Assembly (NCBI GenBank): GCA_016712355.1
Contig: JADJRF010000005.1
Coordinates: 2,449,562-2,513,561, forward strand
Length of the DNA stretch: 64,000 bases
Direction: 5' to 3'
Source: Vampirovibrionales bacterium
GTDB taxonomy: Bacteria > Cyanobacteriota > Vampirovibrionia > Vampirovibrionales > Vampirovibrionaceae
The notes beneath the pieces are model-generated. The model saw only the letters and a program-made list of their open reading frames with translations. It did not search any database and had not been told where the DNA came from. This document shows, piece by piece, positions 8,530 to 63,721 of the stretch. How positions within the stretch are numbered: the first letter of the stretch is position 1; each line of letters opens with the position of its first letter. A program made the translations under genes and the position numbers.

Positions 8530-8535
8530 ACGGCG

Positions 8536-9609: not shown

Positions 9610-9645
9610 CCCCTTCTCCCGTTACGTTTAAGAGGAAAATTCTCC

Positions 9646-45756: not shown

Positions 45757-47283
45757 ATGGCCACCTTGCGCGCAGATGAAATCAGTTCCATTCTCAAAGC
45801 CAAACTGGCCGGGTTTGAAAGCGAACTGTCGGTCAGCAACGTCGGCAGCGTAATGGAAGTCGGCGACGGGATCGTCCGCATCCACGGCCTGCGCGGCGCG
45901 ATGGCAGGCGAACTGATTGCCTTCGAGGACGGCCATCAGACGATGGGCATGGTGCTGAACCTCGAAGAAAACAACGTCGGCGCCGTTGTATTAGGCGAAT
46001 TCACCCACGTGCAGGAAGGTCAGCTCGTTCGCGCCACCGGCCGGATCGCATCAACGCCCGTCGGCGACGCCTTAATGGGCCGCGTCCTTGACCCGCTTGG
46101 CCGTCCGCTCGACAACAAAGGGCCGATCGAAGCGCAGGGTTATGCGCCCATCGAGCAAAAAGCGCCCGGCATTATCGCCCGCAAGTCGGTGCATCAGCCG
46201 CTGCAAACCGGCATTACCGCCATTGATTCGATGACGCCCATCGGTCGCGGCCAGCGCGAGCTGATTATCGGCGATCGCCAGACGGGTAAAACCGCCATTG
46301 CCCTGGATACCATCCTGAACCAGAAGGGACAGGACGTCATCTGCATTTATTGCGCTATTGGGCAAAAATCCAGCTCGGTCGCGCAAACCGTCAAAACGCT
46401 TGAAGATTACGGCGCGATGGCGTATACGATTATCGTCGCGGCCAGCGCGATTGATCCGGCGCCGCTGCAGTATCTGGCGCCGTTTTCCGCCGTTGCGATG
46501 GGCGAGCATTTTATGCGTCAGGGCAAGCACGTGCTGTGCGTGTACGACGATTTAACCAAGCACGCATGGGCCTATCGCGCCACCAGCCTGCTGCTGCGGC
46601 GTCCGCCGGGCCGCGAAGCCTATCCGGGCGACGTGTTTTATCTGCACTCACGCTTGCTGGAGCGCGCCGCCAAGCTCAGTGACGAGTTAGGCGCTGGCAG
46701 CCTTACGGCGCTTCCGATTATTGAGACGCAGGCGGGCGACGTGTCGGCGTATATTCCCACCAACGTGATTTCCATCACCGACGGCCAGATCTTTCTGGAA
46801 ACCGATCTGTTTAATGCGGGCGTGCGCCCGGCAATTAACGTCGGGATTTCGGTATCGCGGGTCGGCGGCGCCGCGCAGACCAAGGCCATTAAATCGGTTG
46901 CCGGCAAGCTCCGGCTGGATTTGGCCCAATATCGCGAACTGGAAGCCTTCGCGCAATTCGCCAGCGATCTGGATAAGGCCACGCAACAACAATTGCGGCG
47001 CGGCTCCAAGCTGGTTGAAATCCTGAAACAGCCACAATATTCGCCATTGTCGGTCGCCCTGCAGTACACGCTGCTGTTTGCCGGCAATCAGGGCGTGCTG
47101 GACGAGCTGGACAAAGCCCAGATTGCGCAATTCAAGGAGCAATGGGGGCTGTATTTCTCAGCGAATCTGGCGTCACTGGAAGCCTCGCTGAACAAAGGCG
47201 AAAAACCGGACGCCGAAGGCGAGAAGCAACTGCTGGCGGAATTAGTCAAATTCAGAGACAGCGCCTTTACGCCGGGAGCCTAA
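45757..47283 (+). CDS. atpA: F0F1 ATP synthase subunit alpha
   Basis: P-loop GDRQTGKT, and ...[22 protein letters not shown]; 508 aa. Confidence 0.95.
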
Positions 47284-47288
47284 GCGCA

Positions 47289-48236
47289 ATGCCAAACCTC
47301 AAGGATATCCGCCGACGCATTAAAAGCGTCCGCAACACGCAGAAAATCACGCAGGCGATGCGCATGGTAGCGGCGGCCAAGGTCAAACGCGCCGAAGCCC
47401 GCCTGAAAGCTGCACGCCCCTTTGGCGAATATCTCGAAAGCGTCTTCGCCAGCGTGTATCAGGAGGCTTCGCGCAACCGGCGTTCACTGGAAGGCACGCG
47501 GTATCTTGAATTGTTTAATCCACGCCCGCCGCAAAAGGTCGGGGTGGTCGTTATCAGTTCAGATCGCGGCTTATGCGGCGCGTTTAACGCGACGATTATC
47601 CGCCAGGCCTTCAAGTTGGAGCGGTCTATCCGCGAGCGCGGTCTGTCGCCCTCGTTTTATCTGGTCGGACGCAAGGCGGCGACTGCCTTCCAACGCTATA
47701 GCGACGCGCCTGCGCTGGGACGTATGGTGGATATGACGGCCACGCCGTCTTCTCATGACGCCGATGTGATTGCAGAGACCCTCACCCAGGCGTTTTTGAG
47801 CGGCGAAATTGACAGCATCGCCATCCTGTCGACGCACTTTAAGTCTATGATTTCGTATCGGGCGATGATGACCCCGGTCCTCCCGCTTCAAGGCAGCATC
47901 ACGCAGCTTTCGTCTGACATTGCGCTGGATGCGATTGGCGATCGCGTCAACCCGATGTTCTCGCCCGGCAAGGCGCACCCGCAACTCGAACTGGAGCCCA
48001 CGCCTGCCTTGGCGCTGGAGCGGCTCACGCCGCTGTACCTGTCTAATATCCTGTATATTCGGCTGCTGGAATCTGCGGCCAGCGAACTGGCGGCGCGTAT
48101 GACGGCCATGGCGAGCGCTACCAGCAATGCGGCGGATATCATCCAGAAGCTGACGCTGCAATATAACAAGGCGCGGCAAGCGGCCATTACGCAAGAAATT
48201 CTCGAAGTCGTCAGCGGGGCGCAGGCCTTGGCGTAA
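47289..48236 (+). CDS. atpG: F0F1 ATP synthase subunit gamma
   Basis: MPNLKDIRRRIKSVRNTQKITQAMRMVAAAKVKRAE N-terminal helix. The ORF from 47142 overlaps atpA and is trimmed. No atpD/atpC follows, as in cyanobacterial split operons. Confidence 0.9.
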   Translation: MPNLKDIRRRIKSVRNTQKITQAMRMVAAAKVKRAEARLKAARPFGEYLESVFASVYQEASRNRRSLEGTRYLELFNPRPPQKVGVVVISSDRGLCGAFNATIIRQAFKLERSIRERGLSPSFYLVGRKAATAFQRYSDAPALGRMVDMTATPSSHDADVIAETLTQAFLSGEIDSIAILSTHFKSMISYRAMMTPVLPLQGSITQLSSDIALDAIGDRVNPMFSPGKAHPQLELEPTPALALERLTPLYLSNILYIRLLESAASELAARMTAMASATSNAADIIQKLTLQYNKARQAAITQEILEVVSGAQALA

Positions 48237-48321
48237 CGGGCGCTTGAAGCTGACGCGGCGTCGCGCTATTCTGTGAGAAATCCCATTTTCAACACGATTC
48301 ACCGCCCGCGAGGCTTTTGAA

Positions 48322-49296
48322 GTGACGTCTTTTTCCCCTGCGTCCTCTGCCCTGCCCCAGCGTCCTGACGGCGCTCCTGTCGCCCGCCTGCCGTTTGTGA
48401 AGATGCACGGCCTGGGCAATGATTTTGTCATGCTGCGAGCCGACGCCCTGCCCCCGCAGACAGATCTGGCGACGCTGGCCCAGACGCTATGCGATCGGCA
48501 TTTCGGCATTGGCGCTGACGGCCTGATTATCGCGGGTCCGCCGAGTGACGCGGCGCGCGCCGACGCCCGCTTTACGTATTACAACGGCGACGGCAGCCGC
48601 GCCGAGATGTGCGGCAACGGCATCCGCTGCTTTGCGCGCTTTGTACGGGCGCAGGGGCTTGTTTCGAGCGATATCATGCGCGTGGAAACCGACGCGGGCG
48701 TCTTAACGCCGCAGCTCAACGCCGACGGCAGCGTGACAGTGGATATGGGCGCGCCGCGATTGAGGGCGCAAGACATCCCCTTTGCCGGCGAGCATCAGGC
48801 GCCGGACGCACCCGTGCGCAATTATCCGCTGAGCGCGCTGGGACGCTCGTTTGGGGTATCGCTGGTGAGTATGGGAAATCCGCATTGCGTGATTCTGCAA
48901 GACTCGCTCAGCTCGCCGCTGGATCCAGCCGTCTTTGGCCCGGCGATCGAAACCCATCCGGGTTTTCCTCATAAAACCAACGTGGAATTTGTTGATATTC
49001 TGGATCGCCAGACCGTACGCGCCATTGTCTGGGAACGCGGCTGTGGCTTCACGCTGGCTTGCGGCACCGGCGCATGCGCCATTGCTGTTGTCTGCGCATT
49101 AGAGGATCGGACAGATGCCGAAACGACGGTGCTGTTGCCCGGCGGCGCGCTGCGCATTCAGTGGGACAAAACCGACCCGGCCTCGCGCGTCCTGATGACC
49201 GGCCCCGCCGAAACGACATTTGAAGGGAGCATTGATTGGCCGCTGCGCGTCGCGTCGCCGGAACGAACGTCGACGCCCGGCGTCATGGCTTCGTAA
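48322..49296 (+). CDS. dapF: Diaminopimelate epimerase
   Basis: FVKMHGLGNDFVML and the two catalytic Cys blocks (MCGNGIRC, ACGTGACA). Confidence 0.9.
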   Translation: MTSFSPASSALPQRPDGAPVARLPFVKMHGLGNDFVMLRADALPPQTDLATLAQTLCDRHFGIGADGLIIAGPPSDAARADARFTYYNGDGSRAEMCGNGIRCFARFVRAQGLVSSDIMRVETDAGVLTPQLNADGSVTVDMGAPRLRAQDIPFAGEHQAPDAPVRNYPLSALGRSFGVSLVSMGNPHCVILQDSLSSPLDPAVFGPAIETHPGFPHKTNVEFVDILDRQTVRAIVWERGCGFTLACGTGACAIAVVCALEDRTDAETTVLLPGGALRIQWDKTDPASRVLMTGPAETTFEGSIDWPLRVASPERTSTPGVMAS

Positions 49297-50955: not shown

Positions 50956-53190
50956 ATGACGTCATGTTTTACCCCCCGTCTCGGGGCGCCTTCGCGGTTG
51001 TTGCTTCAGGCGCTCGTGATCACGGCGATGCTGGGCCCAGTCTGTCCCGGCGCGTCACCGCCTGCATGGGGGCAATTGGGCGATTACGCCTATTATTACG
51101 CTCAAGGGAACAGCTTTTTTGAAAAAGGCGAACTCACAAAAGCGATTGAGATGTATGAAAAGGCTATCACGCTTGCCGAAGGCCCCAGCATCCCCATCGC
51201 CTACAATAACCTAGCGGCGATTTATATGCGTCGGGGCAATTATTTTATTGGCGTCAAACAATTGGAAAATGCGCTGTCGGATTTTCGGCGCGCGTATTAT
51301 TTATTAGAACCCGCCTGGCCGGATGGCATGGAGCGTTCTGAAAAGCAGGACGCCAACCGCAAGATTTCACGCGAGAACCTTAAAATCGGTTACGGCAATC
51401 TACAAATCAGCCTAAACGATGCGTCTGCGCACCGTGAGCTCGCCAAAAAACTGCGATTTTCCGGGAAATTCCAGGAAGCCGTTGTCGAGTACGCCCGCGT
51501 ACTGGAATTAAGCCCCTCCGACGCCGATTCCGCCAAGGCGATGGGTGATTTATTTAACGTGTTAGGCGTCGCCGAGAAATCCAAGAAATATTACGCGATC
51601 GCCGTTAAAAATGGCGCAGGCGGGCAAGACGGCGATTTACTGACGCGCCTGGCGGACGCCCAAAGCAAGAGCGGCGAAACAGACGCAGCGGTTCAAAGTC
51701 TTAACAAGGCGCTCGAAGCCGATCCCAATAATCAGACTGCCCTGCGTCAGCTTGAAGATATCTGGATGCGCGAATTAAAGTACAATCCAAAAAGCGTCCT
51801 GGCGCACGCCAATCTGGCAGGAGTGTTCCAAAAACGCAAACTTTATGATCAGGCGCTTAAAGCCTATAACAATGCAGAACTATACGCCAGTCAGGATCCG
51901 GCGACGACGCTGGACGTCAAAAAATTAATCCGCCTGAATATGGGGACGCTATATCAGGAAATGCGCGATTTCCCGATGGCGGAAAAGGCCTATACGACCG
52001 TCCTTCAAATTGAGCCGGGCAACCGTCTGGCGAATTATTATCTGGCCGCCATGTACCGTGATTCCGGGCGCGTGGATCAGGCCATGGGTCAATACCGTCG
52101 TCTCCTGGCGGCAGACCCGGACAATACTGACGCGATGAAAGATCTGCTGGAATTAATTCGTCGCCAGCCGCCCGAGAAGGCTGCGCCTCAGTTGCAAGCC
52201 TATGCCGATCAGTTTGCGGGCAACGCCTTAGCGCAATCGCGCGTGGGCGAGGAATTCCACGCCATGAAAAATTATGAGTCCGCCGCCGCCTATTATCAGC
52301 GCGCGCTCGCTATTAATCCGGAGTTGGCCTCGGCAAACGCCAATTTAGGCGTCTTATTACAGTCTCAAGGCAAGCTCGACGAAGCGCTCCCTTACCTGCA
52401 GAAGGCCGCGCGACTGGATCCGCAGAATCAGACAGTAACAGGCCTGCTCAAAGACGCCCAATCGGCTGCGGGCCAGGACGCGCTCTCCAAAGCCGGGGAT
52501 TTACTTCACGCCGGCCGCTATGAAGACGCTGCCGGCGCGTACCAGCGCGCGCTACAAACAGCCGGAGCGGACACCCCTGAGGCCCGGGCCTCTTACGGCA
52601 TTGCGCTTCAGAATTTGCAGCGCCTGCCCGAGGCGATTGCTCAGTACCAGAAAGCAATCGCTGCCGCGCCTGACAAAGGGGATTTTCGCTATTATCTGGC
52701 CACCGCCTATCATCAGTCCGGCGACTTAACCAAGGCCGCCGCAGAGTATCGTCGGGCGCTTGCGGCCCCCTCGCTCGACGACGCGCTCAAACCCCAGGCG
52801 CAGCAGGCGCTGGACGGCTTAACCCAAGCGCACGCGGCCGATACGCTTAATAAGGCGGTCGATGCCTACAACCGAAAAGCTTACGCCCAAGCCTTAACAC
52901 TGGTCGAGCAAGCCTTGCGGGAGTCTCCGCGCAACGCGACGGCGCTCTACTACCGGGCGATGATATATAGCGATCAGGGCAAGCTGCCGCAGGCCATCAG
53001 TGGCTATCAGGACACCCTGCGCGCAGACCCAGGCTTCAAGGACGCTTATTTTGGCCTGGCGGTTGCATTAGAGAAGAAGTCGGATCGCGCAGGCGCGCGC
53101 GGAGCTTTTCAGAAGTTCGTGGAATTATCGGCAGGTCAGCCCGACGACGACTTCACCCGTTATGCGCGCGAGCGCCTGAAAGCCTTATAG
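50956..53190 (+). CDS. Secreted multi-TPR repeat protein
   Basis: Signal peptide and more than 12 TPR units (W-LG-Y-A-F-P consensus positions, AxxxYxxAL). Confidence 0.6.
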   Translation: MTSCFTPRLGAPSRLLLQALVITAMLGPVCPGASPPAWGQLGDYAYYYAQGNSFFEKGELTKAIEMYEKAITLAEGPSIPIAYNNLAAIYMRRGNYFIGVKQLENALSDFRRAYYLLEPAWPDGMERSEKQDANRKISRENLKIGYGNLQISLNDASAHRELAKKLRFSGKFQEAVVEYARVLELSPSDADSAKAMGDLFNVLGVAEKSKKYYAIAVKNGAGGQDGDLLTRLADAQSKSGETDAAVQSLNKALEADPNNQTALRQLEDIWMRELKYNPKSVLAHANLAGVFQKRKLYDQALKAYNNAELYASQDPATTLDVKKLIRLNMGTLYQEMRDFPMAEKAYTTVLQIEPGNRLANYYLAAMYRDSGRVDQAMGQYRRLLAADPDNTDAMKDLLELIRRQPPEKAAPQLQAYADQFAGNALAQSRVGEEFHAMKNYESAAAYYQRALAINPELASANANLGVLLQSQGKLDEALPYLQKAARLDPQNQTVTGLLKDAQSAAGQDALSKAGDLLHAGRYEDAAGAYQRALQTAGADTPEARASYGIALQNLQRLPEAIAQYQKAIAAAPDKGDFRYYLATAYHQSGDLTKAAAEYRRALAAPSLDDALKPQAQQALDGLTQAHAADTLNKAVDAYNRKAYAQALTLVEQALRESPRNATALYYRAMIYSDQGKLPQAISGYQDTLRADPGFKDAYFGLAVALEKKSDRAGARGAFQKFVELSAGQPDDDFTRYARERLKAL

Positions 53191-53312
53191 CGCACCGAAA
53201 GCCGTCCATGCCCGCGCGCATTGACAAGCCGCCCCCTGATTGTGCTATCGTGGTTGCACATCCTGTTTTTACCCCCGTTAATCCCAACTCCCTAATAGCT
53301 GAAACAGACGAT

Positions 53313-53351
53313 GGGCCTGTAGCTCAGTTGGCTAGAGCGCACCCCTGATAA
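53313..53351 (+). pseudogene. Partial tRNA-Ile(GAT): 5' half ending in the anticodon loop
   Basis: gggcctgtagctcagttggctagagcgcacccctgataa is identical to nt 1-39 of the intact tRNA-Ile 212 bp downstream. The 21-bp leader is also duplicated with 3 mismatches (53292-53312 vs 53504-53524). Confidence 0.7.
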
Positions 53352-53524
53352 CGTAGAGCCCATGAGCTTGAGTCAGGAAAGAGAGACTAGGCCAAAAGCA
53401 GTCCCATTCAGGATCTCGAATCTCCGGTTCTCTTATGATACAACATGGATTCTCCGATGTAAAAAAACCGATGACTCACTTTTTACTCAGTTTTCCTCGC
53501 TCCAAAATGGCTGAAACGCACGAT

Positions 53525-53601
53525 GGGCCTGTAGCTCAGTTGGCTAGAGCGCACCCCTGATAAGGGTGAGGTCCGGTGTTCGAGTCACCGCAGGCCCACC
53601 A
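53525..53601 (+). tRNA. tRNA-Ile (anticodon GAT), CCA encoded
   Basis: gggcctgtagctcagttggctagagcgcacccctgataagggtgaggtccggtgttcgagtcaccgcaggcccacca is a canonical cloverleaf with anticodon stem caccc/gggtg and loop ctGATaa. Confidence 0.9.
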
Positions 53602-53768
53602 TCCACGCCACTTTCAGCCGATCCAAGCCAGAAACGAGAGAAAAATCCCGACAAAAATGACTCAGTTTTACAATCAAAAAACCTCTAGAAGCTCCTCCTT
53701 GAGGGGCTTTTCACGTTTTTACGGATTACTCAGTTTTCACAACCCAACTGAGTCATAAGGGTGAGGCC

Positions 53769-54530
53769 ATGAACACCGATAGCCGAATCACAGACTGCGA
53801 GGCGCTTAAGGCGGAAATCGACAGCTATCGTCCGTTGGATGAATACACCCTCAACCAGCTCAAGGCCTACTACCGGGTAGGGTTGACGTATGCCAGCAAC
53901 GCCCTGGAAGGCAACACCCTGACCGAGACTGAAACCAAGGTGGTACTGGAGGACGGCATTACCATTGGCGGTAAGCCCATGAAGGATCACCTGGAAGCCA
54001 TTGGTCACGCCAAAGCGTATGACCTACTGTATGACCTGATTCAAAATCCGAGCGTGACCGAGGCCGATTTACTGGCCCTTCATCGTTTGGTCGTGGAAGG
54101 CATTGACGGCACCAAACCAGGGCAATATCGAAGCAAGCCCGTCATCATTACCGGAACCGCCTACGTCCCCCCTCAACCTGCCGACGTTCCAGGACAGATG
54201 CAGACATTCATTGAGGACAAGCTTCCCAACTGGATCAAGGCCGAACATCCCATTCATACGGCGGCGCTGGCCCACCTGGAATTGGTGACCATCCACCCGT
54301 TTCTGGATGGCAATGGCCGGACGGCCCGGCTGCTCATGAATCTTCTGTTGCTGAAGACAGGCTACCCCATCACGATTATCCCGCCGGTGTTGCGGTCGGA
54401 TTACATGGCTTGCCTACGGTCATTTCAGGAAAGCCAGGACAACACGCCGTTTCTGAACTTCATTTCCAACGTGGTAGTTGAGTCGTCCAAGGATATGCTC
54501 CGGCTACTCAAGCACCTCCAACCCCGTTAA
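53769..54530 (+). CDS. fic: Fic-family protein (class II; N-terminal inhibitory motif present)
   Basis: Fic active-site motif HPFLDGNGRTARLL (HxFx(D/E)GNGRxxR) and N-terminal SNALEGN matching the (S/T)xxxE(G/N) auto-inhibitory helix. First gene of the low-GC island. Confidence 0.85.
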   Translation: MNTDSRITDCEALKAEIDSYRPLDEYTLNQLKAYYRVGLTYASNALEGNTLTETETKVVLEDGITIGGKPMKDHLEAIGHAKAYDLLYDLIQNPSVTEADLLALHRLVVEGIDGTKPGQYRSKPVIITGTAYVPPQPADVPGQMQTFIEDKLPNWIKAEHPIHTAALAHLELVTIHPFLDGNGRTARLLMNLLLLKTGYPITIIPPVLRSDYMACLRSFQESQDNTPFLNFISNVVVESSKDMLRLLKHLQPR

Positions 54531-54974
54531 ACGTCCATCCAGCGGTCATGTTTGGGCTTGTCGCCAAAGACGTTGCTCATGAAGTTTTCCAAGGCTTCCT
54601 TGAGACGACGTTCCTTTTCATCGCTCATCGCCTTGTCCACATCGCGGGCCATCGCTTCCACCCAGTACCCGACGGCGATTGCCAAGGCGTCCAGACGGTC
54701 ATCCTGGGCCAAGGCTCCCCGTTCTCGGGTAATACGGCTCATCTGGTAGAAAAGCTGGTACTTCAACGCCTGCTCTGGCGGTAGGTGCTGGGTCGATTTG
54801 TAGTCCCGGTCAATGAGCTTTCGATTCACAATCAAGCGGTGCTGGTTCATCACGGGTTCGAGGGTATCAATAATCCGCTTCTCTTTCTGGATACTGTGCT
54901 TCACCTCCTCGGTGGTCACCGGGTAAATGCGGGTTAGGAAAGGCTTGAGGAGTTGCTCGAACATCCCATCCCCG
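54527..54974 (-). pseudogene. 3' gene fragment truncated by IS insertion, possibly the C-terminal nuclease region of a phage terminase large subunit
   Basis: Native sequence begins exactly at the IS end (54975); the first 24 codons of ORF 54527..55048 are IS-derived. ...AQDDRLDALAIAVGYW resembles the terminal HDDxxDAL metal-binding motif of terminase nuclease domains (weak inference). Confidence 0.35.
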
Positions 54975-55038
54975 TGGTCAACCCCCAAAATATGATCCAG
55001 TTGTAAGTCAGTGGTTTGGTGTTGATGGGGTTCAGTAT

Positions 55039-55872
55039 TCAGGCGCATGGAGCGGAGCGGAATGGGACTGAATACTGAAGTCGCGCAGCCGGAGCTGGTG
55101 GCTTGTATCCCAGTGAGCTGTGCGGCCTGACGTGATTGTAATGCTCACGCCAGTCTTCAATAACCGTCTGTGCTTCTTTGAGCGTATAGAACAACTCCCC
55201 ATTCAGCAATTCATCGCGTAACCTTCCATTAAAGCTCTCGTTGTAACCGTTTTCCCAAGGGCTGCCCGGCTCAATGTAGGCCGTCTTTACCCGCAGTTGA
55301 TACAGCCACTCCTTGAGTGTGGCAGCGGTAAATTCGCTGCCGTTGTCTGAACGGATATAATCCGGCAATCCTTCTCTCAGAAACAAGTCACTCAGAACAT
55401 CCAGCACATCATCACTGTTCAGACGATAATCCACACGGATGGCAAGGCATTTGCGGGTAAACTCGTCAATCACGGTGAGCATCCGTATCTTCTTGCCACA
55501 GGCCAGCCGGTCTGCCACAAAGTCATAGCTCCACACATGGCCCGGCCAGCAGGGACGAAGCCGAATGCAGGAGCCATCATTCAAATACAGACGGCTCCGC
55601 TTCTTCTGGCGTTTAGGAACCTTCAGACCTTCCTCGCGCCAAATACGTTCCACTCGCTTGTGGTTAACCCGCCAGCCCTCAGCACGAAGCAAGGCGGTGA
55701 TGCGCTTGTAACCGTAGCGACCATACCGACGGGCCAAACGGATAATATCACCCCGAAGCGCCTCTTCATCATCGGGCTTTCGTTTGAGATAGCGCTGAAC
55801 GGAACGGCAAACGCCGAGCGCATGACACGCCCGGCGCTCCGATATACCATAGCGTTGCTGGCTTTTTACCAC
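55039..55872 (-). CDS. IS3-family transposase OrfB (DDE integrase core)
   Basis: rve-domain blocks HVWSYDFV...[11 protein letters not shown]...[11 protein letters not shown]...[16 protein letters not shown]. Confidence 0.85.
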
Positions 55873-55895
55873 ACAACGACGCTTCCGCTCAGCGC

Positions 55896-56174
55896 TTAAA
55901 AGTTTCCCGCTGCCGCGTCCCTGAGGATCTGCTTGTCCAGAGTTAAATCGGCTACCACACGCTTTAACCGCGCATTCTCAGCCTCCAGCTCTTTAAGCCG
56001 CTTTGCCTGAGAGATACCCATGCCCCCATACTCCTTGCGCCATTTGTAATAGGTCGCATCCGAAACACCCAGCTCCCGGCATATCTCTTCTACCGTCTTC
56101 CCCTGACCCGATAATACCTCCGCCTGGCGCAGCTTGCGAATAATCTGCTCCGGCCTGTGACGCAGTTTGCTCAT
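55896..56174 (-). CDS. IS3-family transposase OrfA (HTH, leucine zipper)
   Basis: [20 protein letters not shown]...TYYKWRKEY...[25 protein letters not shown]. Confidence 0.85.
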
Positions 56175-56254
56175 ATCTCCCTCCTATTTGTCGGTCTCTT
56201 CTTTTTACCTCAACTACGAGATAATTTCTGGACCGAATTATAGGGGGCGGGTCA

Positions 56255-56883
56255 CCTTTTCGTTTCACCCATGTATAGAGGTTGACAGTCTTTTCCGGGG
56301 CTTCATCGGTCTTACCCAAAACGAGTTGACGAATCTTCTCCGGTAATGCCGCCGGGGCAACGGTTTCATGAATCACGATTTCCAGTACATGACCCATCGG
56401 GTCGCGCACGACCACGTAACGGTCCAAGTGGAAGACCCGCATCCCGTCGGGCTGGGACATATCCATCAGGACATTCCCGGCCACAAGCAAGTGCTTCAGG
56501 ATTTCAAAGACGGCCACGCGATCCGCTGAGACCTCAATCTCGGTCATCACGGCCTGTTCGACTCGGGAGAGCGCCGTCTCCAGTTCGGTTTTCAATCCGG
56601 GATCCGTCTGACCCTGGATAAACTCGTCCACCCGTAGCCGAAAGAAGGGACTGTTTGGCGGCAACAAAGCCAACAATAGTTTGGAAGCTAAATTGTTGAC
56701 CCCTCTGGCTCCTACTCCTTGATAGGGTGTTTCCAGCTTCGTTGTGGAATTATGTCCGTTGGGTGGGAGCAGGCTAGGGATGGTATATTTCGAGGCTTCC
56801 CGCGCCCGGTCCAGGTAGACAAAGCGGCGGGTTTCCAGCTCCCGATACCGAGCTTCGGCGGTTCCGACCACAGCGCTATCCAT
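56255..56883 (-). pseudogene. T7-like phage portal (head-to-tail connector, gp8-like) N-terminal fragment, interrupted by IS copy 1
   Basis: YTIPSLLPPNGHNSTTKLETPYQGVGARGVNNLASKLLLALLPPNSPFFRLRVDEF aligns to the T7 gp8 N-terminus (YTIPSLFPKD...DYQTPWQAVGARGLNNLASKLMLALFP...). The reading frame runs straight into IS sequence at 56254. Confidence 0.7.
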
Positions 56884-57281
56884 ACTAATTGGGCACGTTC
56901 AGCCCCGAGCCTGGACCCGGAATCAATAAATCAATCCGAAGAGACCGGGTGCCACTCCGACGAGCGGACGCCAAATTGCTATCCGTCTTCCTTTTACGGG
57001 CTTGTTCATCTTCTTGAGATAAAGGCGCGGTCGGTGTGGGCTCTGGAGGGGGCGGGACCGGCGGGAGCGGTGTGGGTTGTACGGCAGGAATCTTTGGCAT
57101 TTTAGGTTTGGATCCGCACATCTACACATTCTCCAAAAGGTTTTCTTGCTGACGTTTTGATTGTTCGATGAGAAAGCGCACGACCCGACGCTCTCCGACG
57201 GTGACCCGCCCCCTATAATTCGGTCCAGAAATTATCTCGTAGTTGAGGTAAAAAGAAGAGACCGACAAATAGGAGGGAGAT

Positions 57282-57560
57282 ATGAGCAAACTGCGTCACA
57301 GGCCGGAGCAGATTATTCGCAAGCTGCGCCAGGCGGAGGTATTATCGGGTCAGGGGAAGACGGTAGAAGAGATATGCCGGGAGCTGGGTGTTTCGGATGC
57401 GACCTATTACAAATGGCGCAAGGAGTATGGGGGCATGGGTATCTCTCAGGCAAAGCGGCTTAAAGAGCTGGAGGCTGAGAATGCGCGGTTAAAGCGTGTG
57501 GTAGCCGATTTAACTCTGGACAAGCAGATCCTCAGGGACGCGGCAGCGGGAAACTTTTAA
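57282..57560 (+). CDS. IS3-family transposase OrfA
   Basis: Identical in amino-acid sequence to 55896..56174. Confidence 0.85.
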
Positions 57561-57583
57561 GCGCTGAGCGGAAGCGTCGTTGT

Positions 57584-58417
57584 GTGGTAAAAAGCCAGCA
57601 ACGCTATGGTATATCGGAGCGCCGGGCGTGTCATGCGCTCGGCGTTTGCCGTTCCGTTCAGCGCTATCTCAAACGAAAGCCCGATGATGAAGAGGCGCTT
57701 CGGGGTGATATTATCCGTTTGGCCCGTCGGTATGGTCGCTACGGTTACAAGCGCATCACCGCCTTGCTTCGTGCTGAGGGCTGGCGGGTTAACCACAAGC
57801 GAGTGGAACGTATTTGGCGCGAGGAAGGTCTGAAGGTTCCTAAACGCCAGAAGAAGCGGAGCCGTCTGTATTTGAATGATGGCTCCTGCATTCGGCTTCG
57901 TCCCTGCTGGCCGGGCCATGTGTGGAGCTATGACTTTGTGGCAGACCGGCTGGCCTGTGGCAAGAAGATACGGATGCTCACCGTGATTGACGAGTTTACC
58001 CGCAAATGCCTTGCCATCCGTGTGGATTATCGTCTGAACAGTGATGATGTGCTGGATGTTCTGAGTGACTTGTTTCTGAGAGAAGGATTGCCGGATTATA
58101 TCCGTTCAGACAACGGCAGCGAATTTACCGCTGCCACACTCAAGGAGTGGCTGTATCAACTGCGGGTAAAGACGGCCTACATTGAGCCGGGCAGCCCTTG
58201 GGAAAACGGTTACAACGAGAGCTTTAATGGAAGGTTACGCGATGAATTGCTGAATGGGGAGTTGTTCTATACGCTCAAAGAAGCACAGACGGTTATTGAA
58301 GACTGGCGTGAGCATTACAATCACGTCAGGCCGCACAGCTCACTGGGATACAAGCCACCAGCTCCGGCTGCGCGACTTCAGTATTCAGTCCCATTCCGCT
58401 CCGCTCCATGCGCCTGA
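57584..58417 (+). CDS. IS3-family transposase OrfB
   Basis: Identical to 55039..55872. The frame is open upstream into the orfA end (-1 frame), consistent with frameshift fusion. Confidence 0.85.
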
Positions 58418-58493
58418 ATACTGAACCCCATCAACACCAAACCACTGACTTACAACTGGATCATATTTTGGGGGTTGACCAAACCTTAACATA

Positions 58494-58994
58494 TTAACCT
58501 TTGAGATTGCCTAGCTTTAATTCGGGATGCCGGTAGACCCAGGGATAGAGGGGTTGATCCTTCTTACACCAGAATCCAAGACATTGGCTCTTTGCTTGTT
58601 CCTCTTCAGTTTCAAACTCAAATGAATACTTCAGATACGCATAAGAATAGCCATTAGCCACGAGGGCTTGGTTAATATCCTTATCTTCAGCGTAAATATA
58701 CCCAAGCAACCTTTTGTATTTGTCTCGGCCCGTTATCTGTACGAAAATTTGTTTTTCATTTAGCTGGTCTTGTAGATAGGTAGTGGCTCTTTGTCCCCAG
58801 ACTCCTTGAGATTCTTCAGGGGCATCAATCCCTTCCAATCTCAATTTTTCCCGTTTGCCATGATATATGAGTTCTATAGTATCTCCATCGACAACCCTCA
58901 GTAGGGTAACCGACTCTCTTGGCAGTCCCTGAGCATAACAAAATGATGCCATAGCCAAGTAGAGGGCTATGACCAGCCCCTTTAGTTTCCTCAT
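58494..58994 (-). CDS. Secreted thermonuclease (staphylococcal nuclease/SNase-like)
   Basis: Signal peptide, then VVDGDTIEL...LRLEGIDAPE...DKYKRLLGYIYAEDKDINQALVANGYS matching SNase Ca-binding and catalytic blocks. Confidence 0.85.
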   Translation of the reverse strand: MRKLKGLVIALYLAMASFCYAQGLPRESVTLLRVVDGDTIELIYHGKREKLRLEGIDAPEESQGVWGQRATTYLQDQLNEKQIFVQITGRDKYKRLLGYIYAEDKDINQALVANGYSYAYLKYSFEFETEEEQAKSQCLGFWCKKDQPLYPWVYRHPELKLGNLKG

Positions 58995-59008
58995 TTATAT
59001 TCTCCTAG

Positions 59009-59251
59009 TTAGACTTTACTTTTCCTAAAACCTTGTTTTTGTGCCTCTTGTTCACTTTTAAAGCATCGCCGATTGTCTTTGCCTTTATTCCTAACCAACA
59101 TCCGATCATAGTATTTCTGCCCTGGCGCGTGATAAATCATCGAAGCTGTATTACCGACTACGGGGCAGTCATTTGGACTGTAGTCCTTGGCAAAAGCCAC
59201 GCCCGAAAAGAGTAAAGACATTGTTACCAGCGTAGAGATTAAAAGTTGCAT
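59009..59251 (-). CDS. Small secreted protein with a Cys/His Ada-like (Ada_Zn_binding-like) motif
   Basis: Signal peptide, then DCPVVGNTASMIYHAPGQKYY...DNRRCFKSEQEAQKQGFRKSK. The same motif recurs in ORF 59875..60270. The pattern resembles the Ada N-terminal metal-binding domain (CxxxC...N-R-x-F-x-S-x-x-E-A-x-x-x-G-x-R). Confidence 0.45.
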   Translation of the reverse strand: MQLLISTLVTMSLLFSGVAFAKDYSPNDCPVVGNTASMIYHAPGQKYYDRMLVRNKGKDNRRCFKSEQEAQKQGFRKSKV

Positions 59252-59343
59252 CTGCGATTACCTTTACGAGATAATATACAAGTTTCTATTTATTAAACTT
59301 CAGGAACTTACATTGATAAAAGTTCACATAATGAGATAATATA

Positions 59344-59356
59344 TCACAAATTGTGA
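59344..59356. promoter_or_regulatory. Perfect palindrome TCACAA-A-TTGTGA immediately upstream of the XRE regulator gene (candidate operator)
   Basis: 6-bp arms are exact reverse complements. Flanked by two direct repeats GAGATAATATA (59268, 59333) in the divergent intergenic region. Confidence 0.3.
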
Positions 59357-59383
59357 CAATGCAAGTTTTGTGAAGGAGCGTAT

Positions 59384-59878
59384 ATGGGCAAGTACAGAAC
59401 AGCTTTCGGCGACTTATTGGACGATCTCCTTTATGAAAAGGGGATGAAGTCTCTTACGGAGTTTGGAGAACGTATTGGTGTAGCTAAAAATGCCTTGTCG
59501 CAATACTGCACAGGCGCACGGGAACCAGGGGATGAGATTCTGATCAGGATGGCTTTATTCCTGGACGTGGATTACATCACCTTGAAGAGAGCCGCCCTCT
59601 TAGATCGGTATCCGTTGTGGCAACTGATTACCATTGGGGTCTTTGACTCTTTCTTGACCAAAGAACAAGTAGGGGAACTCCAAAGCCTGATTGACAATGA
59701 GGATGATCTGGAAGAATTGTTGAAACAGCTTCACCGAGACTTAGATTTGCAGAAACAATACGTTTCCGTTGGATGGAAAGATTTTTTAGAATCGTTGAAG
59801 TCTGCGGGGTTTCTGCACAAACAGAAAACGAAACCTCCCCTGAGCAAGACCCATGAAAAGAGGGTTAATGCTCTATGA
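59384..59878 (+). CDS. XRE-family HTH transcriptional regulator (first gene of island operon)
   Basis: HTH_3-like LTEFGERIGVAKNALSQYCTGAREPGDEIL. Confidence 0.65.
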   Translation: MGKYRTAFGDLLDDLLYEKGMKSLTEFGERIGVAKNALSQYCTGAREPGDEILIRMALFLDVDYITLKRAALLDRYPLWQLITIGVFDSFLTKEQVGELQSLIDNEDDLEELLKQLHRDLDLQKQYVSVGWKDFLESLKSAGFLHKQKTKPPLSKTHEKRVNAL

Positions 59879-60270
59879 CACAAGATACAGAAAAGGTTAT
59901 CCCCATCAGTCAGAGACAAGACAAGATGAGCAGATATGACCTGCTGAAAAGCCTTATGAGCACTAAAGAAATAACAACAAACGCCAGTAAAGCTCGTCGC
60001 TACGGCCTTTTTCTCACAATTCTTACCCTGTTAGTTATTGCTGGCCTGTATGGGCGTTCCCAACTTGGCTATAAACCTACCGCTATAGATGAGGCGCTGG
60101 GTGCAAAGCAGTGTCCAATCATCGGAAATGTCGATTCAAAGTTGTATCACACTCCTAAGGAACACCACTATCTTGAACTACTCCAAAGAAATAAAGCCCG
60201 CGAAAACAGAATCTGTTTTTCTCAAGAATGGGAAGCATGGCTAGCAGGCTATAAGAAGAGTAAATTTTGA
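59875..60270 (+). CDS. Membrane-anchored protein with C-terminal Ada-like Cys/His motif (paralog of 59009..59251)
   Basis: One TM (LFLTILTLLVIAGLYG), then QCPIIGNVDSKLYHTPKEHHY...ENRICFSQEWEAWLAGYKKSKF. Its start overlaps the upstream stop (ATGA). Confidence 0.45.
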   Translation: MTQDTEKVIPISQRQDKMSRYDLLKSLMSTKEITTNASKARRYGLFLTILTLLVIAGLYGRSQLGYKPTAIDEALGAKQCPIIGNVDSKLYHTPKEHHYLELLQRNKARENRICFSQEWEAWLAGYKKSKF

Positions 60271-60626
60271 AAGAAATGGTTTTAGCAATGAGCGATACGT
60301 CTTATAAAACATTTAAAAAGGTGCTGGGCATTATTTCTATTTTAATGCTGTTAGGTACTTTGGCAGATAATCCTTATAGCTACTATGTTTTGCTTCGCTG
60401 GGTTGTTTGCATTGCAGCCATTAGTATAGCTCTTTCTTTTAAGGCATTAAATAAGGAAGGCTGGTTTATCACATTGCTAATTACTGCCTTCTTATTCAAT
60501 CCCCTGATCCCGGTTCACTTAAACAAGCAATTGTGGACAGTTCTGGATTTAGTAACTGCTGCTATCTTTTTGGTGTCTATTTTCAAACTTGAAAACAATA
60601 CCAAGAGGTTCCCAGCCAATGAGTGA
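60267..60626 (+). CDS. Small polytopic membrane protein, hypothetical
   Basis: 3-4 hydrophobic helices; start/stop overlaps with neighbours. Confidence 0.4.
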   Translation: MKEMVLAMSDTSYKTFKKVLGIISILMLLGTLADNPYSYYVLLRWVVCIAAISIALSFKALNKEGWFITLLITAFLFNPLIPVHLNKQLWTVLDLVTAAIFLVSIFKLENNTKRFPANE

Positions 60627-61284
60627 TCATTTAGATGTACTGAGGCAGATGCGACAAAGCCAGACTCAAGAGCTTGCTCTTGTAGAAGATATAGCACCTC
60701 AAAAGCAGTGCCCTTTCTGTGCAGAGAGTATTTTAATAGATGCGATAAAGTGCAAACATTGTGAGGAATGGCTTATCGATCAAAGTAATTCTGGCAAGAA
60801 GCTTTATAGCAACAAACAAAGTCTTATTTTCTTATTTTTACTATCCTTCCTTTCGATTGGTATATATGACCTGTACTGGTTCTATAAGAACTGGAGACAG
60901 CTAAAGTCTATTGGTTATAAAATTTCCCCTGGATTGAGACTATTAGGTCTTTTTGTTCCCTTTCTCAATCTCTACCTACTCGATAACTTTATTCGTGAGG
61001 TTAAAAAACTGGGAGACAGTGTTGGCAATAAGACCTACCCTTATCCCTTTTTGGTAGGGTTCTGCTATATATTCTCAAATATAGTTTCCCGCTATGTAAT
61101 CTTTCATTTTGGCTTCTGGGCTCCGGTTTACCTGCAAGGAAAACTTAACGCTTATTGGGATAAAACACAGCCGTCGCTCGAAACGAGAAAGTTTCCCACT
61201 GTCTGGGAATGGGTATTCTTAATAGTATTAGGACTATTCTGGCTTCTCTGTATTGTGGGTGCTCTAGTGGGAGGTAATAACTAA
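60619..61284 (+). CDS. Zinc-ribbon (CPxC...CxHC) plus DUF4234-like membrane domain protein
   Basis: N-terminal QCPFCAESILIDAIKCKHCEEWL zinc ribbon. A membrane domain with IGIYDLYWFYKNW resembles DUF4234. ATG at 60619 overlaps the upstream stop; an alternative start is 60589. Confidence 0.6.
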   Translation: MSDHLDVLRQMRQSQTQELALVEDIAPQKQCPFCAESILIDAIKCKHCEEWLIDQSNSGKKLYSNKQSLIFLFLLSFLSIGIYDLYWFYKNWRQLKSIGYKISPGLRLLGLFVPFLNLYLLDNFIREVKKLGDSVGNKTYPYPFLVGFCYIFSNIVSRYVIFHFGFWAPVYLQGKLNAYWDKTQPSLETRKFPTVWEWVFLIVLGLFWLLCIVGALVGGNN

Positions 61285-63329
61285 TGCCAAATACAGTCAA
61301 GCAAACGAAGCTTTGTCCTAATTGCAATAATGAAATATTGGCTGAAGCCATTAAGTGCAAACATTGTAAAAGTTTCATAGAACAATCTTTAGAAAAAGCG
61401 TCAAACATTTCTGAGTCTAATGTTGGGATAGAAATCCATAATACTCCTGTAAGGCATTCATTTGATTTAATTAATAACAATGCCTATAGGGTGTTAGGAC
61501 TTCCTGCTGATGCCTCTCAGGAATCGATTCATGAAGCTAATAGCTCTATTCGTAGAGTTCTAAAGATTGGGGTAAGCAAATCCTCTCCCTGGGATTTGGC
61601 TTGGATTGGCCCAATCAATAGGAGCGAGAAAGATTTACAGTCTGCTATAGGCAGGCTTATGAATCCAGTTCAACGTCTTCAGGAACGCTTATTTTGGTTT
61701 TCAAGTAATACGCCTCTACTTAATGAAGCAACCATAGAATCTCTATCGTCCGTCATTTCTGAGCTTGAAACAAAAGCCAATAGCCATGATCTTGCAGTGG
61801 TAAAGCTTGCCTACGCTAATTTGATTGATCCTGAACTCAAAAATATAAAACTTTGGATAGAAGCAATAACTCTTTGGGAAACAGTCATTTCTTCAGACGA
61901 CTATTGGGCCTCTTTGCTCGATATGGAAATGGACGGTGAATTTGAGCCTTTTGCCACCATAGAAGAGGTAGAGAACCTAAAACTGAATGTTTACAGGTTG
62001 GTCTGCTCAAAGCTATTAGCCCTAGCAAATGAGGGTATAGTTGCCAAGAATGAAGGGATTTGTAGGCAAGTTTTTAGCATTCTTAAAGATTCAAAAATAC
62101 CCAGAAATATTTTTTACGAATTTGAAACTCAAGCCTTTGGAAGTTTGGAAGATCAACTCACTGAATTATGTGAACAGATTCGGAATGATTCAAATAGTAT
62201 TCTTAACAAGCAGGATACCAATGCGCCAGATAATATCAAAGCCTGTACTACAGCCTTAAACCGATTTAATAATGAGGTTCGGCCTCTCTTAAGCAAATTG
62301 CTGAATGTAGCTGGTCAAAATACGGAACTTGCTAATCGTGTTAAAGAAGAAGCCGCCGGTTGTCTAAGGGGCATTGCTATAAACTTTACTTGGGCAGATG
62401 AGTTTATCCGTTCTAAAGAGTTGCTTGAACAGGCTATAACTATTGCTCCTAAAGATTCTTCCGTCTATCATCGACTGCTAGAGGACTCAGGAGATGTTGA
62501 AAAAACTTCTGAGAAGCAGAAGATATGGAAAGACTTAAAACCTATCAAGAGTGCTCCTGTCCTTCAAACCATTAACGCCTGCGGCTTCACTTTATATGGT
62601 TGTACTAATGTTGATCCTGAAACACAGTCTGGCTTGTCAACATATTACTTTGTAATTTTAGGTATTCCTATATTCCCCATTTGTCGATACAGAGTAATTT
62701 CAACAGGTGATAGGAGCTATAGATTTTTAGGAAAAGCCCCCTTAAGAAAGGGGGATAAGTGGCACCTAGGCATATCACTGTGCCTGATTCTTATTGCTTT
62801 TCTGTGGATTTCAGCTAGCTCATCAACAAGCTCATCGAATTATTCTTCAAACTACTCCTCTGCTCCTAGTGAAACAACAAACTATTCTTCTACTCCCAGT
62901 GAAACATACACAGATCCTGAATCCACTTCGACCTCCACAAATGAACCAGCGACTCAGGAAATTCAAACTCCTCCAGAGGGTATAATACCCACCAATCAAT
63001 TCAGCTCTACTTACAAAATCGACTTGAAAGCAAAGATAGATGCGGGTAGAGCCAAATTGGCCTCTCTGGAAGCCTCTTATAATCAATTAGCGGATGAGGT
63101 GCAGAGCATGAAGCTTGAACTTAATCAGAAACAAGCTGAAGTTGAAAAGCTTGAAACCCAAGCCAAGTATGGCATTGATGTTGAACAGTATGAATCTAAG
63201 AGACAAGCTTATAATCAGTTCGTTGAAAAGCATAATCAAACGCTTTCCAGGGCTAAAAAAGCTGAGCAAGAATACAATGCAGTTCTCGAAGAGGATCACA
63301 GGATGGTTCAGGAATATAATTCGCTATAA
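61284..63329 (+). CDS. Large multi-domain protein: N-terminal zinc ribbon, degenerate J-like helical domain (no HPD), central TM segments, S/T/N-Y-rich linker, C-terminal coiled coil
   Basis: LCPNCNNEILAEAIKCKHCKSFI is a paralog of the previous gene's ribbon. AYRVLGLPADASQESIHEANSSIRRVL is J-domain helix II/III-like but lacks HPD. TM stretches lie around residues 440-520. NYSS repeats are present. The last ~110 aa have heptad periodicity. Confidence 0.55.
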   Translation: MPNTVKQTKLCPNCNNEILAEAIKCKHCKSFIEQSLEKASNISESNVGIEIHNTPVRHSFDLINNNAYRVLGLPADASQESIHEANSSIRRVLKIGVSKSSPWDLAWIGPINRSEKDLQSAIGRLMNPVQRLQERLFWFSSNTPLLNEATIESLSSVISELETKANSHDLAVVKLAYANLIDPELKNIKLWIEAITLWETVISSDDYWASLLDMEMDGEFEPFATIEEVENLKLNVYRLVCSKLLALANEGIVAKNEGICRQVFSILKDSKIPRNIFYEFETQAFGSLEDQLTELCEQIRNDSNSILNKQDTNAPDNIKACTTALNRFNNEVRPLLSKLLNVAGQNTELANRVKEEAAGCLRGIAINFTWADEFIRSKELLEQAITIAPKDSSVYHRLLEDSGDVEKTSEKQKIWKDLKPIKSAPVLQTINACGFTLYGCTNVDPETQSGLSTYYFVILGIPIFPICRYRVISTGDRSYRFLGKAPLRKGDKWHLGISLCLILIAFLWISASSSTSSSNYSSNYSSAPSETTNYSSTPSETYTDPESTSTSTNEPATQEIQTPPEGIIPTNQFSSTYKIDLKAKIDAGRAKLASLEASYNQLADEVQSMKLELNQKQAEVEKLETQAKYGIDVEQYESKRQAYNQFVEKHNQTLSRAKKAEQEYNAVLEEDHRMVQEYNSL

Positions 63330-63334
63330 AGAGG

Positions 63335-63718: not shown

Positions 63719-63721
63719 GGA

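Follow-up and report, generated by a model that had tools for sequence, protein, structure and literature searches.

A probable T7-like prophage attachment site with a replacement tRNA-Ile(GAT) gene in a Vampirovibrionales genome

The 64-kb stretch of Vampirovibrionales contig JADJRF010000005.1 analysed here (hereafter the window; numbering follows window positions, + strand unless stated) carries an intact tRNA-Ile(GAT) gene that is preceded by an orphan 5' half of the same gene. The segment 53221–53770 is probably the left attachment site (attL) of a T7-like prophage, now decayed, that relied on tRNA-dependent lysogeny, and the intact tRNA-Ile is most likely a phage gene that has survived the loss of its phage. 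According to the proposed mechanism, a tyrosine integrase would recombine a 7–8-bp core (CTGATAA, in the anticodon loop of tRNA-Ile(GAT)) with the host gene, and since the phage attachment site (attP) would have no tRNA 3' half beside this core, the host gene would be split and not rebuilt. The host 5' half (53313–53351) would stay behind the host promoter and the 3' half would move to the far, integrase end of the prophage. A phage tRNA-Ile(GAT) (53525–53601) would compensate for the loss; it would sit in the phage P' arm, about 170 nucleotides (nt) inside the junction, placed between a pair of putative arm-type sites (53472–53495) and two single sites around a terminator. Deletions associated with insertion sequences of the IS3 family would later have gutted the prophage, leaving the phage tRNA as the only intact copy at the locus, and the host would by now depend on it. 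As the window shows attL only, the reading for this locus rests on homology with related loci.

The arrangement in the window begins with a host tRNA promoter-like site, TTGACA-N19-TATCGT (53221–53251, +), which was recognised by sequence reading 32 nt past the stop codon of a gene for a tetratricopeptide repeat (TPR) protein (50956–53190); with its 19-nt spacer, this site was omitted by the promoter scan. The orphan 5' half at 53313–53351 (+) covers positions 1–39 of the host tRNA-Ile(GAT), forms the bacterial (B-O) part of attL and is identical in 39/39 positions to 53525–53563. It ends on the last base of the anticodon loop (ctgataa), and past the loop the copies part, with cgtagagccc after the half versus gggtgaggtc in the intact gene. 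The intact gene (53525–53601, +; called by ARAGORN, Rfam 69.4 bits) is read as a phage-borne replacement, lying inside the prophage by homology with locus L263. Between the crossover and this gene lies the phage P' arm or 'spacer' (53352–53524, +), which is homologous to the spacers of loci L003, L001, L263 and L265. The spacer was also considered as a peptide gene or as an integrase 5' remnant, and both ideas were rejected, as its open reading frame (ORF) has 9 codons and the reverse-strand frames are broken by stops. A group I intron in the anticodon loop was likewise dismissed: Rfam gives no match, and a whole tRNA follows, not a 3' exon.

The original prediction, made from the sequence alone, had described a 60-bp block of leader and tRNA duplicated 212 bp upstream of the intact gene. 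The 39-nt tRNA part of it is borne out exactly by the repeat search, which finds an 88-nt direct repeat (53288–53375 versus 53500–53587) with starts 212 nt apart, but the likeness of the leader shrinks to 14 nt with 2 mismatches (gctgaaacagacgat, 53299–53312, +, 12/14 identical to 53511–53524). The resulting 53-nt repeat of leader plus half is far beyond chance. The leader likeness is a property of the window only, the leaders of half and intact copy being unrelated in L001, L003, L263 and L265; it may stem from gene conversion between the direct repeats or from a tRNA cassette captured from a similar host. Two spacers of nearly equal length, about 153 bp, had also been described. The downstream one does measure 153 nt, but the upstream one measures 173 nt from half to tRNA, or 159 nt to the repeated leader.

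For comparison, attL regions were gathered from the window, L001, L003, L263 and L265, amounting to five loci in four assemblies and three tRNA genes (Ile-GAT in three loci, Val-TAC in L263 and Val-CAC in L265). L001 (contig JBDIVN010000002.1) and L265 (JBDIVN010000001.1) come from the same Vampirovibrionales metagenome-assembled genome (MAG), L003 from a second Vampirovibrionales MAG and L002 from a third MAG that is more distant. The integrase ends, or right attachment sites (attR), are represented by L259, L257, L250 and L261. L263 and L259 are the two ends of one prophage, 42.7 kb apart on a single 78.8-kb contig. tRNA genes were called with ARAGORN and Rfam, protein domains with Pfam, and fragments were matched with tblastn and blastn.

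The complete lysogen formed by L263 and L259 carries the main weight of the argument. A search with the L001 terminase returned a clade of 78–100% identical proteins, one of which is encoded on the 78.8-kb contig; the same contig holds an integrase related to that beside the tRNA-Ile 3' half in L250. Following the direction of the tRNA, the attL end (L263) starts with a host aconitase gene and promoter region, followed by a tRNA-Val(TAC) 5' half (GGGCGAT...CCTTACAAG), a spacer, the motif pair ACTACTCACTTTTTACTCAGTT, an intact tRNA-Val(TAC) gene (GGGCGTT...AACGCCCACCA), and finally a motif, a terminator, another motif, a small cargo gene and the terminase. At the attR end (L259), the integrase, whose 5' coding end contains ACTACTCACTTTGTACTCACTT, is followed after about 100 nt by ...CATGG, then CTTACAAG, then GAGGATGTCGGCGGTTCGAGCCCGTCATCGCCCACCA (the tRNA-Val 3' half) and host DNA. 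When the 5' half of L263 and the 3' half of L259 are joined, ARAGORN finds a tRNA-Val(TAC) with a full cloverleaf, and in the half plus spacer, tested on this same lysogen, it calls no tRNA. The rejoined tRNA-Val has 4 differences from the internal intact copy, which make up 2 compensatory pairs (A6:T67 versus T6:A67; G52:C62 versus A52:T62). The two ends of the prophage have only CTTACAAG (8 bp) in common. Since the halves rejoin across 42.7 kb and only these 8 bp are common, the host tRNA has been split and not rebuilt, and the intact copy is phage-borne. The anticodon-loop breakpoint stands as the crossover of a site-specific (tyrosine) integrase, as originally proposed, whereas the homologous loci and the complete lysogen show the opposite of the earlier assumption that the intact gene is the host's own. 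A mini-element with the 5' half in its attP, which had also been considered, is excluded by the complete lysogen.

In L250 and L261, an integrase with HTH_17 and Phage_integrase domains is followed by a motif pair, about 150 nt, and CTGATAAG joined to the tRNA-Ile 3' half. Integrases of family PF00589 adjoin the 3' halves in L259, L257, L261 and L250. The far end of the L001 prophage would be expected to carry an integrase, a motif pair, about 100–150 nt, and CTGATAAG followed by GGTGAGG...GATGGCCCACCA, the last of which would pair with the GGGCCAT of the orphan half.

At the attL end, the same order is present at all five loci: host promoter, 5' half, spacer of about 170 nt, motif pair, intact tRNA, motif, terminator, motif, variable cargo and, on the opposite strand, a T7-like terminase. 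The intact tRNA beside the 5' half is the cognate one in 5/5 loci, and the 5' halves stop at the same loop position in L001 and L003 (Ile), L263 (Val-TAC) and L265 (Val-CAC). In L001 and L003, the promoter is followed by a tRNA-Ile 5' half ending in ...CTGATAAG, 162–226 nt and an intact tRNA-Ile. Positions 53311–53736 of the window are 69% identical to L003 over 435 columns. Moreover, although they adjoin different tRNAs, the spacers of L003 (Ile) and L263 (Val) share 76% identity along 142 nt, so that the spacer goes with the phage rather than with the tRNA of the host. The terminase downstream is full length in L001, where tail fibre and internal proteins accompany it, and reduced to a C-terminal piece in L003 and the window. 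The gene at the fic position varies, being a helix-turn-helix (HTH) gene in L001, a 99-amino-acid (aa) ORF in L003 and a 137-aa ORF in L263. A layout that is kept across relatives in this way is not a recent accident of one locus.

The host side of the locus is conserved as well. The best relatives of the TPR protein are found in L001 (57% aa identity), L003 (53%) and L002 (47%), and a tRNA-Ile(GAT) follows the TPR gene in all three (3/3). A TTGACA...TAT(C/G)(G/T)T element with a 17-nt spacer also follows the TPR gene in L001 and L003. L002, where no phage is present, has a TTGACA-N17-TATCGT promoter and then an intact tRNA-Ile, with neither half nor motifs. One could suppose that half and spacer form a conserved host regulatory leader, such as a tRNA-like decoy or a processing signal, given that they lie between a conserved promoter and the tRNA and are kept in three genomes. 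This is scarcely conceivable, since half and spacer never occur apart from the phage terminase module and are missing in L002 and in 9/9 intact metagenome tRNA-Ile copies, and since the spacer is common to phages at tRNA-Val.

The separate origin of half and intact gene can be read from the relatives in which the two differ. In L001 the orphan half begins with GGGCCAT, the acceptor type of L002 and of several metagenome copies, and the intact gene reads GGGCCTG...CAGGCCC; in L003, GGGCCTT in the half stands against GGGCCAT...ATGGCCC in the intact gene. Only acceptor positions known to be variable among functional tRNA-Ile genes are affected, and the intact genes of both loci are self-complementary. 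Hence half and intact gene arose separately, and the latter is no hybrid with the partner of the half. In L265, the loop is all that the half and the intact tRNA-Val(CAC) have in common, the D arm and the anticodon stem being different throughout. The same data bear on the decay of one member of a tandem tRNA-Ile duplication, an explanation in whose favour it can be said that the window repeat takes in 14 nt of leader, as a tandem duplication would. It is nevertheless highly improbable: 39/39 identity is followed by an abrupt drop, the breakpoint is the same at three tRNAs, half and intact gene differ at paired positions in L001, L003 and L265, and no relative with two intact tandem copies was found, which is the arrangement that the original prediction had named as evidence for simple decay.

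A more elaborate alternative holds that the intact tRNA was rebuilt by integration beside an older scar. The T7-like phage would have supplied no more than the 3' half and the downstream motifs, in the manner of an ordinary island, and the 5' half and spacer would be what is left of the first of two tandem prophages, deleted from the attL core to near its integrase. Other islands at the same tRNA-Ile do carry a 3' half right after the core (L241, L247, L249 and L253–L256), and a P-type pair on the left with P'-type single motifs on the right of the intact tRNA is what the middle junction of a tandem lysogen should look like. This explanation is very unlikely, however, because it needs identical deletion ends in 5 loci, 4 assemblies and 3 tRNAs. 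In the complete lysogen, moreover, the orphan 5' half pairs with the far 3' half and not with the adjacent intact copy, with 8 bp in common. Where attP of a classical rebuilding element carries the tRNA 3' half, an unrelated spacer follows the core in 5/5 attL regions. A metagenome scan for the tRNA-Ile 3' half returned 17 loci, 8 of them 3'-half-only junctions and 9 intact copies. The eight junctions start on CTGATAAGGG or close to it and bear an imperfect copy of the 5' side of the anticodon stem; they are of the ordinary, gene-rebuilding kind. None of the nine intact copies has the half or the motifs beside it; four are 100% identical to the window tRNA with unrelated flanks. The tRNA-Ile gene is an integration hot spot, and the half-plus-spacer layout is specific to the T7-like phage family.

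Additional support for an attachment site comes from short repeated motifs. The pair TGACTCACTTTTTACTCAGTTTTC, two copies of ACTCA(C/G)TTT 11 bp apart, lies at 53472–53495 (+) and was assigned to putative P'-arm sites from its position and from the relatives. A single motif, ACTCAGTTT, is located in the interval between tRNA and terminator (53660–53668, +), and a motif is found at the same place in L001, L003, L263, L265 and L160. It is followed by a terminator-like hairpin with a T run (53687–53721, +), kept in the same five loci. Motif search revealed a second single copy of ACTCAGTTT at 53728–53736 (+) and an inverted copy at 53746–53756 (-), which together occupy 53728–53756. ACTCASTTT has 4 copies in the window, all within 53474–53736, against an expectation of 0.38, and 0/100 shuffles reach 4. 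Measured from the crossover, the attL pair is found at +120/+131 in the window, +122/+133 in L003 and L263, +121/+132 in L265 and +120 in L001, which has an extra inverted pair. On the attR side, the pair lies at -149/-138 in L259 and L257 and at -158/-147 in L250; L261 has one scored site at -148, its partner ACTCAGTC being outside the search pattern. Single motifs are found from about +280 to +375. In L265 the motifs have changed jointly, to CCACA(G/C)T. ACTCA(C/G)TTT occurs in att regions only and nowhere else in about 60 kb of related phage DNA. Because the pairs are one helical turn apart, occur on both arms and keep similar distances from the 7–8-bp core, they are read as arm-type sites, and they are candidate binding sites for the integrase, with its N-terminal HTH_17 domain, or for a recombination directionality factor. 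The ACTCACTTT motifs were also considered as promoters of the T7/T3 type; they resemble the promoter core but occur only at att sites, and the idea was rejected.

The junction also carries transcription signals. A sigma-70-like promoter (TTTACA-17-TATCAT, 53435–53463, -), found by the promoter scan, points towards the crossover, and antisense promoters occupy the same place in L003 (TTGAAC-17-TATAAT), L263 (TTGCGA-17-TATAAT) and L001 (TTGCAA-16-TATAGT). It is plausible that in the circular phage this promoter would read over attP into int and that integration would disconnect the two. For the opposite strand, the terminator scan of the window is empty from the host promoter to the intact tRNA. 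Since there is no intervening terminator and no sense promoter was detected, the window tRNA-Ile is probably transcribed from the captured host promoter.

A further tRNA-like fragment lies outside this conserved layout. The 12-mer ATAAGGGTGAGG occurs exactly twice in the window, inside the tRNA (53560–53571) and as an exact copy at 53755–53766 (+), 153 bp downstream of the intact gene and 3 nt before the ATG of fic (53769). Its recurrence by the fic start was noted correctly at the outset, but it corresponds to tRNA positions 36–47 and not 37–48. This copy shares bases with a GGTGAGG that resembles a Shine-Dalgarno sequence and precedes the fic ATG by 5 nt. According to the original prediction, the fragments are nested relics of successive integration and excision events, with the 12-mer as a second att remnant. 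The match is exact and starts inside the anticodon loop, and by our own estimate the chance that any tRNA 12-mer recurs within about 250 nt downstream is roughly 0.001–0.002. Furthermore, L247 has a fic homologue beside tRNA-Ile 3' fragments, so that the fic cassette may once have adjoined such a site. Even so, this account is unlikely. No tRNA fragment stands at the position of the 12-mer in L001, L003, L263, L265 or L160, which leaves the supposed second breakpoint without a counterpart in the four homologous attL loci; the match ends at 12 nt and overlaps the GGTGAGG; and the 5' half is fully accounted for without the 12-mer, being the orphaned part of the host gene behind the host promoter. 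The 12-mer is unlikely to be due to chance and doubles as a putative ribosome-binding site.

The fic gene itself (53769–54530, +) belongs to the Fic/DOC family (Pfam PF02661, 1.1e-23) and occupies the cargo position. In the viral contig L080, a gene with the Fic motif HPYMDGNGR follows the terminase, and a 51-nt stretch matches the window fic in blastn. At positions 8000–9800 of that contig, the Fic-family gene is flanked by a duplicate of the last ~65 nt of the terminase gene, so the fic cassette there looks like mobile cargo. In L247 (reverse strand, 4087–4850), the order is tRNA-Ile 3' half, a gene for a 168-aa membrane protein, a shorter 3'-end fragment (GTCACCGATGGCCCGCCA) and the fic homologue, which is 69% identical in nucleotides to the window's fic. 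L247 looks like a set of tandem islands at tRNA-Ile with fic as first gene.

Downstream of fic, the window holds the remains of the prophage, and the earlier view that DNA beyond the tRNA is foreign is confirmed by a T7-like prophage remnant, fic, an IS3 pair and pieces of terminase and portal genes. A C-terminal piece of the T7-like large terminase (54527–54979, -; Pfam PF22530) is 72% identical in tblastn to residues 414–561 of the L001 protein. It is followed by IS3-family copy 1 (54975–56256, -; 1282 bp, Pfam HTH_Tnp_1 and rve), which is 100% identical, in inverted orientation, to copy 2 (57200–58481, +; identified by Pfam and its identity to copy 1). The prophage piece between them (56257–57199, -) comprises the N-terminal 211 residues of the portal protein (to 56883; PF12236), an ORF at 56888–57121 and the 27 C-terminal residues of an ORF at 57125–57205; relative to the L160 portal and the two ORFs ahead of it, these show 90%, 67% and 81% aa identity in tblastn, respectively. 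The two inverted IS3 copies therefore bracket a 943-bp prophage piece, resembling a composite transposon or an invertible segment. Copy 1 joins terminase residues 414–561 to portal residues 1–211, and copy 2 interrupts the small ORF that precedes the portal gene. The IS3 copies probably caused the deletions that gutted the prophage. The prophage is dead, and its replication genes, integrase and attR lie past 64000 or are lost. The terminase remnants of the window (54973–54979) and of L003 (13510–13516) both start at residue 414, with breakpoints about 6 nt apart. An insertion sequence stands at this breakpoint only in the window, not in L003, and the open frames of the remnants have 173 and 175 codons. 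A common ancestral deletion, a hot spot or a retained function could be behind the shared breakpoint.

Taken together, the window and its relatives encode T7-type proteins in T7 order, namely a terminase with a T7 RNaseH-like domain, head-tail connector, T7 tail fibre, gp13 and gp14, besides nozzle, T7 capsid assembly and Gp10A-like capsid proteins. The replication module (DNA polymerase A, exonuclease) is transcribed opposite to the structural module. No gene for a single-subunit RNA polymerase lies in the parts of these phages that were analysed. The phage L161, whose portal protein is 82% identical, has no tRNA fragment in the region upstream. The GC content falls in two steps, from about 0.60 upstream to 0.53–0.55 at 53–58 kb and 0.39–0.46 at 58–64 kb, and not in the single sharp drop right after the tRNA that had been described. 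The low-GC block at 58494–64000 encodes a staphylococcal-nuclease homologue, an HTH protein and DUF6804 and DUF4234 proteins; a 681-aa ORF in it (61284–63329) had been labelled Hsp70, which the Pfam scan did not confirm, as this ORF has no match.

Several observations weigh against reading 53221–53770 as such an attL. First, only attL is seen in the window: as was correctly noted at the outset, the Pfam scan of the window proteins finds no integrase, and neither an integrase nor a second, orphan tRNA-Ile 3' half is present in the 64 kb. Second, half and intact gene are identical over 39 nt and resemble each other in the leader, so that the window sequence alone cannot tell the host copy from the phage copy. 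Third, a complete lysogen at tRNA-Ile is missing from the loci retrieved, and for the L001 prophage the integrase end was not reached, its contig yielding no match to an integrase or exonuclease. Additionally, the window lacks a detectable counterpart of the sense promoter that is predicted to overlap the motif pair in L003, L263 and L265, and the binding of a protein to the motifs is a prediction. The need for a phage tRNA depends on tRNA-Ile(GAT) being single-copy, and the tRNA count here covers 64 kb. Finally, L160 (L159/L160 1–1230, IMGVR_UViG_3300037310_000613) has a junction without an adjacent integrase, which the simple model does not predict. The order in this contig is two small ORFs and a portal gene (90% identical to the window's), about 230 nt, CCTGATAAG with the tRNA-Ile 3' half, motif, terminator, motif and, where the contig stops, the C-terminus of a terminase; this gives the impression of one phage having entered the tRNA-Ile of another.

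Other searches were negative within their scope. The tRNA-Ile 3' half was not found within 10 kb downstream in L001 or L003. Scans of viral contigs gave no match to the L250 integrase, to the junction of half and spacer, to the core with its spacer or to the motif pair, and exact-protein look-ups of two window ORFs gave none either. The right border of the island could not be placed by synteny, as no downstream gene is common to L002, L003 and the window.

A broader, tentative interpretation, which we regard as possible but somewhat doubtful, is that this phage family retargets between tRNA genes as a cassette, and that prophage decay then fixes the phage tRNA as a permanent replacement of the host gene, driving tRNA turnover in Vampirovibrionales and locking remnants in place. 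The cassette would consist of an attP whose 7-nt overlap equals the anticodon loop of the target, together with the cognate tRNA in the P' arm, placed under the captured host promoter. One integrase type would tolerate different anticodon stems (Ile-GAT and Val-TAC, and Val-CAC with an altered arm motif). The window and L003 would then be decay cases in which the phage tRNA has permanently replaced the host gene.

Some observations on the phages and their surroundings may be added. The MAG with L001 and L265 holds two related prophages (terminases 91% identical) in different tRNAs (Ile-GAT and Val-CAC, respectively), each with its own cognate tRNA and different arm motifs. Between integrase and phage exonuclease, L257 (12121–18794), L259 (16417–19312) and L261 (10048–17332) contain variable defence-type cargo, including a methylase with a BsobI-like endonuclease, a SAVED/SMODS CBASS-like pair, HipA, CTD10/DUF2326/MC6 genes and a 1624-aa helicase-like protein. 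The window itself has a tRNA-Val(TAC) gene at 28681–28753 (-) without encoded CCA; no half copy or motifs lie near it, and it is unoccupied. It is a gene of the type used by a related phage in L263, but its anticodon loop reads TTTACAC versus CTTACAA in the core of that phage. At 45757–49296 of the window, genes for the ATP synthase alpha and gamma subunits are followed by dapF instead of the beta subunit. We take this alpha-gamma-dapF order to be the split atp operon of cyanobacterial type, consistent with a Vampirovibrionia/Cyanobacteriota origin of the window.

The reading of 53221–53770 as the attL of a decayed prophage would extend tRNA-dependent lysogeny beyond actinobacteriophages, to a T7-like phage, a type usually regarded as lytic, and to a different bacterial phylum. 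Its design would be compact, with the replacement tRNA forming part of the attachment site. A dead prophage of this kind would leave its host with a phage-derived tRNA and an orphan half gene, which can keep prophage remnants in place and displace the tRNA genes of the chromosome. In annotation, this type of junction would be recognisable by a 5' tRNA fragment that precedes an intact gene for the cognate tRNA, and tools that seek 3' fragments downstream would misplace island borders there.

The mechanism is already known; what is new is the phage type, the host group and the state of the decayed prophage. tRNA-dependent lysogeny has been shown experimentally in actinobacteriophages (Fionnbharth/K4, Cluster L, CQ2, DL and Gaia; Guerrero-Bustamante & Hatfull, mBio 2024, PMC10865867). 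It was characterised there by a tyrosine integrase, a core of ~8–17 bp in a host tRNA that is not rebuilt, a complementing cognate phage tRNA, arm-type pairs around the core, and related phages that switch target and tRNA together; the prevalence beyond actinobacteriophages was left as a question, with one possible Lactobacillus case named (PMC10865867). At sequence level, the present loci show every feature that defines such lysogeny, the integrase being found in the relatives. The two systems agree in an attB within the host tRNA, the lack of rebuilding, a phage tRNA of the same anticodon, candidate arm pairs and the co-switching of target and tRNA. They differ in the core (7–8 bp here versus 8–17 bp), in the phages (T7-like modules versus siphoviruses) and in the hosts (Vampirovibrionales-like, Cyanobacteriota, versus Actinobacteria). 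Unlike in the actinobacteriophages, the tRNA is part of the P' arm, at a distance of about 170 nt from the crossover and directly downstream of the captured host promoter. The targets here are Ile-GAT, Val-TAC and Val-CAC, and the window represents an end state, a dead prophage with a persisting tRNA. The Lactobacillus johnsonii prophage Lj965 is cited in PMC10865867 for a tRNA that is not rebuilt at the junction and an encoded cognate tRNA; by that citing description it resembles the present case in another phage type and another host phylum.

Classical integration into tRNA genes with a crossover in the anticodon loop is represented by HP1 and 16-3. The present system shares with it the crossover in the 7-nt anticodon loop, the stem as inverted repeat and the tyrosine integrase, and the same tRNA-Ile is also used by islands of the classical type (L241, L247, L249 and others). 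Islands in tRNA genes have been catalogued in Islander (PMC4383910). In classical elements, attP carries the tRNA 3' part, the gene is rebuilt at attL and a 3' fragment is left at attR, whereas nothing is rebuilt here and a 5' fragment stands beside a complete foreign copy. The layout of a lambda-type attP is matched by the position-locked pairs on both arms, whose role as arm sites is predicted. T7-like cyanophages and pelagiphages (P-SSP7, S-TIP37) also have an integrase and an att site in a tRNA gene (PMC8776855; 10.1101/410191). In T7-like cyanophages, attP lies immediately after int and matches part of tRNA-Leu perfectly over tens of bp, and no stable lysogens or intact prophages are known (PMC8776855). 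Unlike these, the phages described here are found as full-length prophages in assembled genomes, and they carry a whole tRNA.

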